Source: an uncultured delta proteobacterium
Lineage (GTDB): Bacteria > Desulfobacterota > Binatia > Binatales > Binataceae
Direction: 5' to 3'
Length of the DNA stretch: 64,000 nucleotides
Assembly (NCBI GenBank): GCA_963724765.1
Contig: CAVRVY010000001.1
Coordinates: 1,152,001 to 1,216,000 of the forward strand
Position 1 is the stretch's first letter. Each line of letters starts with the position of its first letter. The notes under the pieces were generated by a model, which made no database searches, had not been told where the DNA came from, and worked only from the letters and a program-made list of their open reading frames with translations. Below, in pieces: positions 2,598-6,772 of the stretch. A program made the translations under genes and the position numbers.

Positions 2598-3206
2598 TTA
2601 AGCCTTGGCGCTCGGCCGCGAGGACACCGTCTCGTGCCATCGTGCCAGGTTCTTCTGCTCGGGCGTTATCCGCAGCTTGATCAGCTTGGCGAAGTCGATC
2701 GCGACCAGCGCCGTGATGTCGGCGATCGTGTAGCGCTCGCCGGCGATGAATTTGCTCGCGGCCAGGAACCCGTCGATCATCGTGAATGCCTTCTCCGCCG
2801 CCTGCCGGCAGACCTCGCCGTACTCGGGCACCTGCGGGATACGTCCCTTGAAGAAATCCGAGGTATTGCGAAACGCTCCGGTCACCATCGCGAACAGGTT
2901 CTGTTCCATCCGCCGCTGCCACATCTCGACCAGCGCCCTGTCGCGCGCGTCGACGCCCATCAGGCGCGGCTCGGGATGGGTCTCCTCGAAGTAGCGGCAG
3001 ATTGCGACCGACTCGGCGAGGTAGGTGCCGTCGTCCAGTTGCAGCACCGGCACTCCGCCGAATGGGTTGATCTTCAGGAACTCCGGCGTGCGGTTTTGCG
3101 CCTTGGCGAGGTCGATCTGCTCGTCGGGGACCTGGACGCCTTTTTCGGCCAGGAAGATCCGCACGCGGCGCGGATTGGGCGCCATCTTGGTATCGTAAAG
3201 CTTCAT
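2598..3206 (-). CDS. Glutathione S-transferase family protein
   Basis: APNPRRVRIFLAEKG, INPFGGVPVL, ESVAICRY and YTIADI motifs; AAGGAG RBS. Confidence 0.92.
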   Translation of the reverse strand: MKLYDTKMAPNPRRVRIFLAEKGVQVPDEQIDLAKAQNRTPEFLKINPFGGVPVLQLDDGTYLAESVAICRYFEETHPEPRLMGVDARDRALVEMWQRRMEQNLFAMVTGAFRNTSDFFKGRIPQVPEYGEVCRQAAEKAFTMIDGFLAASKFIAGERYTIADITALVAIDFAKLIKLRITPEQKNLARWHETVSSRPSAKA

Positions 3207-3221
3207 CGTTATTTCTCCTTC

Positions 3222-3257
3222 CGGAATTTTGCCGGGATTGTCGCGGAATTTTGCCGG
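3222..3257. repeat. Direct repeat CGGAATTTTGCCGG x2 (22-bp period) in a divergent promoter region
   Basis: Copies at 3222-3235 and 3244-3257. Confidence 0.8.
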
Positions 3258-3405
3258 ATGCTAGCAATGGGTGGAGTTCGATGCCAAACGGCGCGCGTGC
3301 CCAGTTGTTCGGACGGCGGTCAAACGGAATGCCGCGGATTGCCAACGCGCGGATCCCCAGGGCGGCGGTTTGCCCGCTTCATTTGGCGGAGTTATTGTCA
3401 TTGCG

Positions 3406-3741
3406 ATGCCGATCTACGAGTACGAATGCGCGGCCTGTGCGAAGGTAAGCTCGCACGTCGTGATGGGCTCGCGGCGCCGCTCGCGGCTGGCCTGCCCGGC
3501 GTGCGGGGCGGCGCGGCTTAAGCGCGTGATGTCGTCGTTCGCGGTGGTTTCGAGCGAGGCGTCGCGGCTGGCGGAGTTCGACACCTCGCGCCCGCGCGAC
3601 GAGTCGTTCTATCGCGACTCGCGCAACGTCGGACTGTGGGCCAAGAAGCGCGCGAAGGAAATGGGCGCGGACCTGGGAAGCAAATTCGAGGAGACGGTCG
3701 AAAAAGCGCGCAGCGGCAAACTGGTCAAGGAAATGCTCTAA
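3406..3741 (+). CDS. FmdB-family zinc ribbon regulatory protein
   Basis: MPIYEYECAAC...CPACG..LKRVMSSF signature. Confidence 0.88.
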   Translation: MPIYEYECAACAKVSSHVVMGSRRRSRLACPACGAARLKRVMSSFAVVSSEASRLAEFDTSRPRDESFYRDSRNVGLWAKKRAKEMGADLGSKFEETVEKARSGKLVKEML

Positions 3742-3785
3742 GGAAATCGCGCGCGGTGCTCCGATCCAATACGCAAGGAACAAAA

Positions 3786-3837
3786 GCGGGACACGACGCG
3801 GGACAAAGAAAAAGCGCGACAGAGAAAGAGCGGGACA
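3786..3837 (+). repeat. Four GCG(G/C)GACA units in an A-rich leader
   Basis: Units start at 3786, 3798, 3814 and 3830. Confidence 0.75.
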
Positions 3838-3843
3838 AAAGAG

Positions 3844-4098
3844 ATGGACGAAAAAGATCGTTACGGTGACAAGCTTCACGACGTCGAACGCGCACGCGAA
3901 GAGCAGTGGGCCCATCAGCGTGACCAGGAATTGCTCGAGAAGCTGCGCAAACAGGGCGACGACGCGCTCTGCCCGCAGTGCCGCAAGCCCTTGGTGGCCC
4001 AGACGCGCGGCGGCGTCGCGATGATGGCGTGCGCGGACCAACACGGCGCATGGCTGCGCGCCGAGGTGCTCGACGCGATCTTCAAGCGTTTGAAGTGA
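3844..4098 (+). CDS. Small protein: charged N-terminal helix (IF1-like) plus zf-TFIIB-like zinc ribbon
   Basis: CPQC...CADQHGAWL ribbon; N-terminal ERAREEQWAHQRDQELLEKLRK helix. Confidence 0.75.
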   Translation: MDEKDRYGDKLHDVERAREEQWAHQRDQELLEKLRKQGDDALCPQCRKPLVAQTRGGVAMMACADQHGAWLRAEVLDAIFKRLK

Positions 4099-4191
4099 AC
4101 ACTACTCATTGATGGTCGTGGCGGCCCCACGACCTCGAACTGTCCGCTCCATTCGGCGCTCGCCCGATTGCGCGAGCAGGGGGGGAATGAC

Positions 4192-5067
4192 ATGAAGCTC
4201 GCAACCTTCACGCATCAGGGAAGCACGCGTATCGGCGTCGTGGTCGACGACGCGGTGGTCGATCTTGCCGCGGCGGCGCCGGAGTTGCCGCGCGAGATGG
4301 CGGCGCTGTTGGCGGCCGGCGCAGGCGCGGTGGATCGCGCACGCGCGGCGGCGGCCGCGGGCAAAAACCGGATCGCGCTCGGCCAGGTGAAAATCGAAGC
4401 ACCGATTCGGCGTCCACCCGAGTTCCTCGCGATTGGGTTGAACTACGCCGACCATATCGGAGAGACCGGCCGCGAGCGCCCAACCTTTCCGATCTTCTTC
4501 AACAAGCAGATCACCTGCGTCAACGGGCCCTATGACCCGATTCATCTGCCGCGTGCCTCGGAGGCGCTGGATTACGAGGGCGAACTGGGCCTCGTTATCG
4601 GGCGGCGCTGCCGCCACGTGCCGCGCGAGCGCGCTCACGAGGTTATCGGCGGCTATATGATCGTCAACGACGTGAGCGTGCGCGACTGGCAGCGCAAGGC
4701 GGCCACGATGACGCTCGGCAAGTCGTGGGACACCCATGGCCCGACCGGGCCGTGGATCGTGACGCCGGACGAAATCGGCGACCCGCACACGCTCGAACTG
4801 CGCACGCTGGTCAATGGCGAAGAGCGCCAGCATTCGAACACGCGCCACCTGATCTTCGACTGCTTCTCGATCATCGAAACGCTTTCGACCGTATGCACGC
4901 TCGAGCCGGGTCTCATCATCTCGACCGGAACTCCGTCGGGCGTGGCCTTGGCGATGAAGCCGCCGCGCTGGCTCAAGGCCGGCGACGTGGTGCGGATCGA
5001 AATCGAACGTATCGGGTATATCGAAAACCGCGTGATCGACGAGCCCGCCAGCACCACGGTCATCTGA
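4192..5067 (+). CDS. Fumarylacetoacetate hydrolase family protein
   Basis: IGLNYADH, LDYEGELG, NDVSVRDWQ, GKSWDTHGPTGP and TGTPSGV motifs. Confidence 0.93.
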   Translation: MKLATFTHQGSTRIGVVVDDAVVDLAAAAPELPREMAALLAAGAGAVDRARAAAAAGKNRIALGQVKIEAPIRRPPEFLAIGLNYADHIGETGRERPTFPIFFNKQITCVNGPYDPIHLPRASEALDYEGELGLVIGRRCRHVPRERAHEVIGGYMIVNDVSVRDWQRKAATMTLGKSWDTHGPTGPWIVTPDEIGDPHTLELRTLVNGEERQHSNTRHLIFDCFSIIETLSTVCTLEPGLIISTGTPSGVALAMKPPRWLKAGDVVRIEIERIGYIENRVIDEPASTTVI

Positions 5068-5070
5068 GGC

Positions 5071-5655
5071 ATGGAAAAACCGGCAGAGACCGCCCATCCG
5101 ATCGAGGAGTTGCTGCGGCGGCGATGGAGTCCGCGGGCGTTCGCCGAGCGGCCGGTCGAACCGGAGAAGCTGGCGAGCATGTTCGAGGCCGCACGATGGT
5201 CGGCCTCTTGCTTCAACGAGCAGCCGTGGAGTTTTATCGTCGCCACCCGCGACGACGCGGCCGAATTCGCACGCCTGCTGAGTTGTCTCATCGACGGTAA
5301 TCAGGCCTGGGTCTCCCATGCGCCGGTGTTGATGGTGTCGGTGGCGCGGCTCAACTTTGCGCAGAACGGGCAGCCTAACCGGCAGGCAATCCACGACGTT
5401 GGGTTCGCGACGGCGCAAATGATCCTGCAGGCGACGGCGATGGGCCTTTTCGCGCATCCGATGGCCGGGTTTTACCCCGACAAGGTGCGCGAGCTTTACG
5501 GCGTGCCCGAGGGTTACGAGCCGGTCGCCGCGATCGCGGCGGGCTATCCGGGTGATCCGGCGGCGCTAAGCGAATCGCTTCGCCAGCGCGAGCTTGCGCC
5601 CCGTGTGCGCAAGCCTCAGGAGGAATTCGTGTTGCGCGGGCGCTTCCGCGCATGA
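5071..5655 (+). CDS. Nitroreductase family protein
   Basis: RRWSPRAF, EAARWSASCFNEQPWSF and HPMAGF motifs. Confidence 0.92.
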   Translation: MEKPAETAHPIEELLRRRWSPRAFAERPVEPEKLASMFEAARWSASCFNEQPWSFIVATRDDAAEFARLLSCLIDGNQAWVSHAPVLMVSVARLNFAQNGQPNRQAIHDVGFATAQMILQATAMGLFAHPMAGFYPDKVRELYGVPEGYEPVAAIAAGYPGDPAALSESLRQRELAPRVRKPQEEFVLRGRFRA

Positions 5656-5710
5656 TTAGCGAACCCTGAGATTCGGAGCGGCGGCGCGACGCCGATAAAA
5701 CGAGTCCATG

Positions 5711-5746
5711 TTGACAGGGTGATCCTCGCCAACTACATGAGGATCA
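5711..5746 (+). promoter_or_regulatory. Candidate nuo promoter with overlapping inverted repeat
   Basis: Perfect TTGACA at 5711-5716, 17 bp, weak -10 TACATG; inverted repeat TGATCCTC-N11-GAGGATCA at 5720-5746. Confidence 0.5.
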
Positions 5747-5792
5747 GGGGACCTGCCCGAGTCTCGGCACATGAGGCCGCAGGCATAAAGAG

Positions 5793-6233
5793 ATGTATTT
5801 CAACTTCAGCGTCGTGCTCGCACTCACGATCCTGGCGCTTGGCGTCTCGGCGCTGCTGCTCGGCCTGCAAAAGCTGCTGGCGCCGAGCAATCCACACGCG
5901 CGCAAGCTGATGGCCTACGAGTGCGGCGAGCCGCCCACCGGACGCGCCTGGATAAATTTCAACGTCCGCTTCTATCTGATTGCGCTGATCTTCGTAATCT
6001 TCGAGGTCGAGGTCGCCTTCATTTACCCGGTCGCCGCCGTGTTTTCGGACTGGGTGCGCCATGGTCAGCGGCTGTTCGCGCTCGCCGAACTGCTCATCTT
6101 CCTGCTGATCCTGTTAGTCGGGCTGGCTTACGTGTGGGTCAAGCACGACCTCGAGTGGGTCAAGCAAGTCTCCGCAAGCCAGGTCCCTGCAAGCAAGGTC
6201 CCCGCAAGCAAGCCTCTGCGAGCAAATATCTGA
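5793..6233 (+). CDS. nuoA: NADH-quinone oxidoreductase subunit A
   Basis: YECGEPP and RFYLIALIFVIFEVE motifs; first gene of the operon. Confidence 0.95.
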   Translation: MYFNFSVVLALTILALGVSALLLGLQKLLAPSNPHARKLMAYECGEPPTGRAWINFNVRFYLIALIFVIFEVEVAFIYPVAAVFSDWVRHGQRLFALAELLIFLLILLVGLAYVWVKHDLEWVKQVSASQVPASKVPASKPLRANI

Positions 6234-6268
6234 CCGACAGCGTAGACTGATTGGATGAAGGTCGAACA

Positions 6269-6772
6269 ATGCCGTTGCTGAACAGTCTGCCGGACTATGT
6301 CCTGACCGCCAAGACCGACGAGCTCATCAACTGGATGCGCAAGTCGAGCATCTGGTACATGCTCTTCGGACTGGCCTGCTGCGCGATCGAGCTGATGCAT
6401 ACGGGCGGTCCGCGCGCCGATATCGAGCGCTTCGGCGCGACCCCGCGCGCGTCCGCGCGCCAATCGGACCTGATGATCATCGCGGGCACGTTGACGCTCA
6501 AGATGGCGCTGCGCACGCGCCTGTTGTACGACCAGATGCCCGATCCGAAGTACGTGATCTCGATGGGAAGCTGCTCGAACTGCGGCGGCCTGTTTCAGCT
6601 CGCGTACTCGGTGTGCGATGGCGTCGACAAGGTCATCCCGGTCGATGTTTACGTGCCGGGATGCCCGCCGCGTCCCGAGGCGCTGACCGAGGGCCTGCTG
6701 AAGCTGCAGGAAAAGATCATGACCGAACGCTGGCTCGCCAAGGCGCCGGGCGCCAAGGGAGAGGCCGCTTAG
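6269..6772 (+). CDS. nuoB: NADH-quinone oxidoreductase subunit B
   Basis: [24 protein letters not shown] and [11 protein letters not shown] motifs. Confidence 0.97.

Follow-up and report, generated by a model that had tools for sequence, protein, structure and literature searches.

The window, a 64-kb stretch of forward-strand DNA from a Binataceae-type genome, encodes an 84-amino-acid (aa) protein at positions 3844..4098 (+ strand, ATG start in the list of open reading frames [ORFs], stop codon included), and the gene is present as a single copy in that genome. The N-terminal 35 residues of this protein are a free-standing, highly conserved helix, which recurs as a mobile module on zinc ribbons, on Usp domains (ATP-binding type), or alone. 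Profile comparisons in both directions give the module a sub-threshold likeness, always in one register, to the inhibitory helix of IF1, the inhibitor of mitochondrial F1-ATPase. Although weak, the likeness is specific; it suggests that bacteria may have a counterpart of IF1 but does not prove it. The first-pass annotation of the window had described the product as an IF1-like inhibitor helix fused to a zinc ribbon, and the ORF is present with the N-terminal and CPQC...CADQHGAWL strings exactly as they were quoted there.

The gene and its N-terminal helical module

The gene is conserved and genuine, and its product is a small protein with a zinc ribbon of the PF13453 kind. Among the 41 candidates from a word-indexed search, 40 were homologs at E ≤ 1e-3, and an exhaustive search of 1.84 billion representatives yielded 137 representative clusters at E ≤ 0.001, including 23 at E ≤ 1e-10. 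Close homologs, where names were given, were listed as "zf-TFIIB domain-containing protein" or "hypothetical protein" of Candidatus Binataceae. Among 24 close relatives, no variation is seen at D5, G8, K10, E15, A17, E19, D27, L30, R35, C43, C46, C63, G68, or W70. An RNA-library contig from a ~90% identical relative covers the entire ORF and continues into the next gene, which is weak evidence of expression given that DNA carry-over is possible. The RNA-library runs cover just small shares of the stretch, and the uncovered parts are uninformative.

The AlphaFold2 (AF2) model of the protein (predicted local distance difference test score, or pLDDT, of 88; predicted template modeling score, or pTM, of 0.47) comprises a helix at residues 4 to 37, ribbon strands within residues 43 to 70, and a second helix at residues 73 to 83. 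The core of the N-terminal helix has pLDDT values of 92 to 94, and this helix is not packed on the ribbon. Based on the AF2 model, column conservation, and the IATP and PDB profile matches described below, the IF1-like helical module was delimited as residues 3 to 37 (EKDRYGDKLHDVERAREEQWAHQRDQELLEKLRKQ), encoded at 3850..3954 (+ strand). The TFIIB-type zinc ribbon, recognized by PF13453 and by its likeness to the protein ZifS, occupies residues 43 to 70 (3970..4053, + strand), with C43, C46, C63, and H67 as presumed ligands. The short C-terminal helix modeled by AF2 at residues 73 to 83 (…LDAIFKRLK; 4060..4092, + strand) is the counterpart of the "GWLGRLF" and "LDKLFSVFKK" tails in the alignments and translations of relatives, and at a guess it might bind or tether the protein to a membrane.

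The module has the consensus EKDR[LF]GDKL[HR]DxE[KR]AREDQ[WYF][AF]AxRDRELLEKLR and always lies at the extreme N terminus. A simple pattern for this motif was found in 95 of the 135 new proteins of the exhaustive search (P0041 to P0175), and most of the 40 proteins without it match through the ribbon alone or are giant repeat proteins. C-terminal to the module, the proteins carry a single ribbon, two ribbons (~170 to 200 aa), one or two Usp domains (PF00582, in 7 of 96 module members), or nothing but a short low-complexity tail (53 to 62 aa). Certain stand-alone entries resemble frameshifted fragments; P0145, P0147, and P0159 do not. A search for longer proteins with residues 1 to 40 as the query returned one 166-aa protein, apparently frameshifted, and no fusions beyond those to Usp domains and double ribbons. 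In the ESM Atlas, residues 1 to 40 gave no usable match, and the stand-alone P0159 matched unnamed short clusters only, at 0.81 to 0.87, below the lead level of 0.9. The 84-aa protein had no match in NCBIfam, and the module, which is conserved, is unnamed, and has hundreds of members, is above threshold in no Pfam or NCBIfam model.

In an alignment of 96 diverse members, E19 is invariant (96/96), and D5 (91/94), G8 (87/94), E15 (84/95), R35 (84/96), and A17 (80/96) are highly conserved. The ERAxE-type motif singled out in the first-pass annotation is accordingly retained in homologs as E-x-A-x-E, formed by E15, A17, and E19. Position 22 is aromatic (W45/Y37/F14), position 23 is divided equally between A and F (A46/F46), and positions 31 and 34 are hydrophobic (L57/I30 and L71/M16, respectively). 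Conservation extends over almost all positions between 3 and 35 and over all faces of the helix. Such conservation, in a helix that is not packed on the ribbon, is as expected of a helix enclosed by a partner. Alternatively, the helix might associate with itself as a coiled coil and dimerize the domain that follows it, ribbon or Usp, without any outside partner. This is consistent with the occurrence of one long N-terminal helix ahead of different domains, and IF1-family proteins form helical dimers. However, it is unlikely in view of the conservation of all faces, including invariant charged residues and a nonhelical EKDRxG start, the lack of a clean heptad in the hydrophobic positions, and the existence of stand-alone forms of 53 to 62 aa.

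Likeness of the module to the IF1 inhibitory helix

The Pfam profile of the IF1 family, IATP (PF04568), aligned residues 8 to 37 of the 84-aa protein with positions 49 to 78 of its 98-position model (E = 0.075; 13.9 bits, with a Pfam gathering cut-off of 25 bits). Among the 96 diverse module members, 31 were matched by IATP at E ≤ 0.1 (best E, 1.4e-4, for P0159), always at profile positions ~49 to 85, and in Pfam this was the sole recurrent family on the module other than zinc ribbons and Usp. In a second set, P0159, P0147, L238, and L240 scored 22.7, 20.9, 19.8, and 19.7 bits, respectively, with matches starting at profile positions 49 to 51; the two highest of these scores belong to stand-alone members of 53 to 62 aa. 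An IATP scan of the organism's whole genome did not list the gene itself and gave three weak matches elsewhere, with internal stops, and IATP gave matches at E ≤ 10 in 8 of 14 control genomes. Because of the matches in control genomes and at unrelated places, single weak IATP matches are regarded as noise.

In the reverse direction, three profiles of the family, A1 (narrow, from close relatives), A2 (broad), and A3 (Tyr/Phe type), were searched against 177,635 distinct PDB sequences. The helix part of the profiles matched 13 IF1 chains, 2 chains of the plant protein P2, 1 chain labeled "PSK," and, more weakly, 2 NDUFA13 chains. With A2, the helix part matched P2, a subunit of plant complex I, at E = 0.0044, the PSK chain at E = 0.011, and IF1 chains of several species at E = 0.0086, 0.010, 0.012, 0.019, 0.020, 0.020, 0.047, and 0.047, followed by weaker ones. 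The first clearly different protein matched by the helix part was NDUFA13 (E ~0.5), and the remaining A2 matches were zinc fingers aligned with the ribbon part. With A3, bovine IF1 (2v7q_J) was matched at E = 0.0052 and P2 at E = 0.21; with A1, P2 was matched at E = 0.038 and bovine IF1 at E = 0.53. Generic coiled coils and charged helices were absent from the profile matches although the PDB contains very many of them, and for this reason the likeness to IF1 is considered specific, though marginal. A profile similarity beyond a generic coiled coil, which the first-pass annotation had chosen beforehand as one of the points on which its proposal should be judged, was therefore found, and it is specific to the IF1 family and sub-threshold. 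At the level of sequence profiles, the likeness is beyond chance for the family as a whole.

In the HMMER register, family position n corresponds to bovine IF1 position n+11, and the invariant E19 corresponds to IF1 E30. The module shares with IF1 (PF04568; bovine structure 2V7Q) a long N-terminal helix, an acidic-Ala-acidic-acidic-x-aromatic core with the same spacing, and downstream Leu residues. In the portion of the study of Bason et al. (2011; PMC3041923) that classes IF1 residues, 17 are strictly or highly conserved and 8 are unconserved. The commonest family residue is identical or conservative at 11 of these 17 conserved positions and at 0 of the 8 unconserved ones (one-sided Fisher p = 0.003), a test whose weight in favor of IF1 is reduced by its dependence on the alignment that set the register, which is itself driven by conserved columns. 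The same portion lists the "group 1" contact residues F22, A28, E30, Y33, F34, Q41, L42, and L45 and reports a salt bridge between IF1 E30 and beta R408 as well as tighter binding of the Y33W variant (PMC3041923). In a register that comes from a weak alignment, 6 of these 8 contact residues are kept or conservatively replaced in the bacterial family: F22 by L, A28 by A, E30 by the invariant E (96/96), Y33 by W, Y, or F, L42 by L or I, and L45 by L or M. The position of F34 is taken by A or F equally (A46/F46 of 96).

Several results weigh against placing the module with IF1. The contact residue Q41 is replaced by L, K24 of IF1 is replaced by D, and R25, described as strictly conserved and required for inhibition in that part of the literature (PMC3041923), is aligned with a variable column (V31/A21/L13/K13 of 95). 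The IATP gathering score was reached by no relative (best, 22.7 bits), and the 13.9 bits of the 84-aa protein itself are at the noise level, since unrelated sites elsewhere in that genome were given 13.2, 11.8, and 10.5 bits by IATP. The PDB E values are marginal (~0.004 to 0.05), and the IF1 matches are interrelated and hence not independent.

The zinc ribbon, the neighboring genes, and the distribution of the family

PF13453 (Zn_ribbon_TFIIB) matched residues 43 to 81 at E = 2.6e-4 (20.8 bits, with a cut-off of 22), and it matched 48 of the 96 relatives at E ≤ 0.1, with a best E of 9.8e-21; precomputed PF13453 assignments were present on several close homologs. The first knuckle is C43-x2-C46, and the second is C63-x3-H67, followed by G68-x-W70, so the C-x3-H in place of CxxC was read correctly in the first-pass annotation. 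H67 is kept in at least 90% of the 24 close relatives, and among the module-bearing proteins collected, 51 have C-x3-H-G-x-W and 119 have CxxCxGxW. Since H67 is nearly invariant and the C-x3-H form recurs in 51 module-bearing proteins, it is a conserved variant and not a lesion. The ribbon is the same as that of ZifS (TTHA0897 of Thermus thermophilus; 8YOZ), which likewise has a G-x-W-L-D-type motif followed by a helix. ZifS (8yoz_A) was matched by A1 at E = 6.3e-8, with values of 6.3e-8 to 1.9e-9 across the profiles. However, the matched part begins at ZifS residue 4 or 5, so that ZifS lacks the N-terminal helix module, and its second knuckle is CxxC. A Foldseek search of the PDB with the AF2 model gave nothing at E ≤ 0.001, and the top match was again ZifS (8yoz_B; probability, 1.00; root mean square deviation, 1.5 Å over 44 columns; E = 0.026). 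A literature search found no paper on ZifS, TTHA0897, or 8YOZ, and all matches to "ZifS" concerned materials.

The names given to such proteins by Pfam ("Transcription factor zinc-finger") and JGI ("Zn-finger nucleic acid-binding protein") would make this protein a nucleic-acid-binding zinc finger or transcription factor, and RNA polymerase and TFIIS-type ribbons appeared in Foldseek with weak scores. This is very improbable: the names are labels of the fold and not tests of function, the helix has ~11 acidic against 9 basic residues, and the Pfam and NCBIfam scans revealed no DNA-binding domain. By Pfam and AF2, residues 43 to 84 are a zinc ribbon and a short helix and not a coiled-coil dimerization region. 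Control by metal or redox state through the ribbon would be a guess, and the first-pass suggestion that a zinc- or redox-switched ribbon takes the place of the IF1 coiled coil is speculation.

Upstream of the gene, on the same strand, lies an FmdB-type zinc-ribbon gene (3406..3741, +; PF09723, E = 5.9e-12; TIGR02605, E = 2.2e-13), which confirms the co-oriented FmdB-like neighbor of the first-pass annotation. Directly before the start codon is a purine-rich leader (3786..3837, +) with three GCGGGACA repeats, and these 52 bases hold all 3 copies of the repeat in the 64-kb window. Similar (C)GGGACAAA repeats occur in some of the nearest relatives (L004, L010, and L013), and leader repeats are absent from the clades in which the FmdB gene abuts the gene for the 84-aa protein. 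Rfam gave no match at E ≤ 1 in 3200 to 6300, and neither in the window stretch nor in L030 did scans for promoters and terminators rise above shuffled sequence. Downstream are genes of the fumarylacetoacetate hydrolase family (PF01557) and the nitroreductase family (PF00881) (4168..5655, +; Pfam), followed by nuoA (5793..6233, +), the first gene of the complex I operon; the distance of 1.7 kb between this operon and the gene for the 84-aa protein agrees with the first-pass annotation.

Gene context was compared in 80 loci from GTDB genomes, which were obtained with A1 and are hence all Binataceae-like, and in 80 metagenome loci of the Tyr/Phe type, with >1.5 kb of upstream sequence in 36 and >1.5 kb of downstream sequence in 32. 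The FmdB-type gene is found upstream in 71 of the 80 Binataceae loci, ending ~11 nt before the start codon in L030, and in 7 to 10 of the 80 metagenome loci. The FmdB-type protein (3406 to 3741; L126:59-394) has a conserved C-terminal extension, …SFYRDSRNVGLWAKKRAKEMG.DLGS.FEETVEKARSGK…, which is kept in distant metagenome relatives, and it has a weak match to the NCBIfam family "RPWMISH" (E = 4.3e-8, far under the cut-off). It may work together with the 84-aa protein. The other neighbors in the metagenome loci include genes for a divergently oriented ClpB-like protein (28 of 80), a riboflavin-synthase-like protein with two lumazine domains (27), a rhomboid protein (22), a DUF1329 protein (22), a GST (10), and a PGPGW membrane protein (10).

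On the downstream side, nuoA, nuoB, nuoC, and nuoD were detected by tblastn on the same strand in 65, 65, 65, and 63 of the 80 Binataceae loci, respectively, and the gap to nuoA is ~115 nt in most of them, e.g., L030. The hydrolase gene (12/80) and the nitroreductase gene (11/80) are inserted before nuoA only in the clade of the window (L004 to L015). Farther upstream, asparaginase-like (61/80), GT39-like (59/80), and small-membrane-protein (54/80) genes are also kept, and because these unrelated genes are kept too, the whole block is taken to be inherited synteny. A second, double-ribbon paralog occurs in 7 Binataceae loci without conserved neighbors. Gene context thus gives a link to ATP synthase no support and a link to complex I support that is limited to the lineage.

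The adjacency to nuoA would suit an accessory or assembly factor of complex I (NADH dehydrogenase) comparable to the IF1-like plant P2 (At2g27730; 6x89_P2 and 7a23_n), which ranks first among the PDB matches to the helix with both A1 and A2 and places an IF1-like helix outside ATP synthase. P2 is plant specific and absent even from the alga Polytomella, and it sits beside the gamma-carbonic-anhydrase domain on the membrane arm, as stated in the portion of a structural account consulted for P2 (PMC8290278). Its match to the helix profile suggests, at the level of sequence, that P2 may itself be IF1-like; a literature search on P2 (At2g27730, NDUP2) found no statement of a relationship to IF1. 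A role in complex I is nevertheless improbable. The synteny is region-wide and includes unrelated genes, so the adjacency may be merely inherited; two unrelated genes intervene before nuoA in the clade of the window (12 of 80 loci); and no nuo gene lies near any of the 80 metagenome relatives. P2 also lacks a ribbon, its similarity is marginal (E, 0.004 to 0.2), and with A3 it falls behind IF1, which leads.

With A2 at E ≤ 0.001, matches were obtained in 40 of 121 genomes sampled across the phylum. The full module (match start at model position ≤ 11) is restricted to 4 of the 121, and these 4 make up the entire sample from the class to which the organism belongs; a shortened core ("…EKAKEGQYFKKKDKE…") is found in 3 of the 4 genomes of one other family. 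One Tyr/Phe-type member is placed in "Candidatus Binatia" by its NCBI name. The remaining A2 matches are proteins of 98 to 102 aa with an "EEEYFAR" start, a Lys/Glu-rich linker, a ribbon, and an "LDKLFSVFKK" tail. Like the module-bearing proteins, they have an N-terminal acidic-aromatic helix, a PF13453 ribbon, and a short hydrophobic tail; unlike them, they lack the EKDRxGDKL start, and their Lys/Glu-rich linker is longer. The "EEEYFAR" family is widespread in the phylum (L244 to L258 and others), and several such loci also have a ribbon-first relative of 63 to 84 aa with a "KRKSFLAELFD" tail, which is ZifS-like. At a guess, the short hydrophobic tails of these proteins resemble membrane-binding amphipathic helices.

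Another protein altogether may be the partner of the helix, in which case its resemblance to IF1 would be a convergence of short, charged amphipathic helices, and the 84-aa protein would be a ZifS-like adaptor or regulator, perhaps acting with the FmdB-type protein. This explanation is a tentative one. In its favor are the clear PF13453/ZifS likeness of the ribbon, the FmdB-type gene as the neighbor that is retained most widely (also found in some metagenome loci), IATP scores that never reach the cut-off, and neighbors elsewhere (ClpB-like, rhomboid, riboflavin-synthase-like, and DUF1329) that have no relation to bioenergetics. On the other hand, it names no partner, and it leaves unexplained why the sole recurrent outside similarity, in both directions and in one register, is to the IF1 family.

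F1-ATPase as a candidate partner

The specific partner to which the helix points best is the beta/alpha catalytic interface of F1-ATPase, although a partner-binding helix of this kind is proposed here with reserve. As IF1 does, the helix would insert into a groove of its partner, where the invariant E19 would pair with a conserved arginine of beta (R403 in this organism, bovine R408) and L11, A17, W22, L31, and L34 would fill hydrophobic pockets. Rotation in the direction of ATP hydrolysis would thereby be blocked, and the ribbon with the short C-terminal helix, or the Usp domain in other members, would serve as the holding or sensing part. In its fullest form, which is somewhat doubtful, the module would be a bacterial IF1-type inhibitor of F1-ATPase hydrolysis, a plug-in helix carried by a ribbon (a possible metal or redox input), carried by Usp (a possible energy-state input), or used alone (as a 55-aa peptide), and either sharing ancestry with IF1 and P2 or having converged on the same groove of beta.

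A bacterial precedent for the proposed mechanism is the zeta subunit of the alphaproteobacterial F1Fo-ATPase, an IF1 analogue that obstructs F1 in the direction of hydrolysis through its N-terminal segment, according to the relevant portions of two reports (PMC9317440 and PMC10469736). Zeta differs in fold and taxon, and no zeta family was among the Pfam matches at E ≤ 1, so the similarity to zeta put forward in the first-pass annotation was not borne out. According to part of a 2022 review (PMC9317440), BLAST searches for IF1 genes turned up nothing in bacteria save for two suspect matches, and a literature search here brought up no account of a bacterial zinc-ribbon protein resembling IF1.

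The organism has a canonical F-type operon on contig 3, encoding alpha (517 aa; L173:1453-3006:-), gamma (290 aa; L173:558-1430:-), beta (475 aa), and epsilon (140 aa), and its beta subunit carries R403, the equivalent of bovine R408, in DELSADDKLVVARAR. Five beta positions decide susceptibility to IF1, namely, bovine S405, D471, L473, A474, and H477, with H401, K467, M469, G470, and V473 as the Bacillus counterparts, as far as the pertinent part of a 2024 study goes (PMC10949317). At these positions, the organism's beta (L169:1480-2907:-; C terminus, …AKGERLARGEAR) has A400, E466, L468, A469, and E472 and is bovine-like at 3 of the 5, with Glu, Leu, and Ala as the equivalents of D471, L473, and A474. 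The offset of -5 between the two numberings was deduced, without an alignment to the bovine sequence, from the matching spacing at both sites and from what we take to be the numbering of the DELSEED motif. In the beta C termini of 30 genomes of the phylum, a small sample whose rows end where the tblastn alignments end, the susceptibility positions vary (the D471 equivalent being acidic or basic) without an obvious link to the presence of the module. A complex prediction with alpha (96-505), beta (82-474), the full 84-aa protein, and ADP scored 0.50, 0.42, and 0.39, with 0.00 for the partner-replaced controls (n = 2) but 0.37 for the alpha-replaced control, which left the result short of the mark, and the prediction is counted neither for nor against binding. 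A second F-type ATPase set is located outside the window on contig 1 at ~211.5 to 217.2 kb (L170, L172, L174, and L176). Its beta shares 54% and its alpha 49% identity with the canonical subunits, and the beta gene precedes the alpha gene, an order that we take to be a trait of N-type ATPase operons.

Apart from the score and residue data given above, the case for an F1 inhibitor is lessened by structure, context, and distribution. IF1 has a C-terminal coiled-coil dimerization region with a histidine-rich pH switch, and both are absent here, with a zinc ribbon, a Usp domain, or nothing in their place. That ribbon is of the ordinary PF13453 kind, with ZifS as the solved member. No atp gene lies within ~6 to 8 kb in 79 of the 80 Binataceae loci, and none was found in any of the 80 metagenome loci. 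In the other Binataceae locus (L082, 6001-12251), the double-ribbon paralog and an N-type-like atpA-atpG pair are arranged tail to tail, with a few hundred bases between the paralog and the end of the pair; such an adjacency in 1 of 80 loci is probably due to chance. To our knowledge, atp operons do not contain the genes for IF1 and zeta either, so the missing atp neighbors are only weak evidence against the F1 reading. A truncation of epsilon was looked for and not seen; the subunit is full length (140 aa) and has its C-terminal part, which leaves no evident gap in the known regulation. The "EEEYFAR" ribbon proteins are without an IATP signal (0/5). The module, unlike IF1, is bacterial, found in a narrow group (Binatia) far from the mitochondrial lineage, and common descent with IF1 is doubtful on this account. 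Should the likeness reflect function, vertical descent is a less likely source of it than convergence or transfer.

The proposal of a bacterial IF1-like inhibitor survives the sequence-level refutation tests and, as a hypothesis, is partly supported. IF1 is viewed as a eukaryotic invention, and a bacterial module with the signature of the IF1 helix would raise the question of where IF1 originated. If the proposal is true, the module would be the first IF1-type inhibitor outside mitochondria and would join epsilon and zeta as a third kind of brake on bacterial ATP synthase, and it would provide a natural starting peptide for the inhibition of bacterial F1. With a different partner, it would still be a protein module of hundreds of members that is well conserved and has no name.

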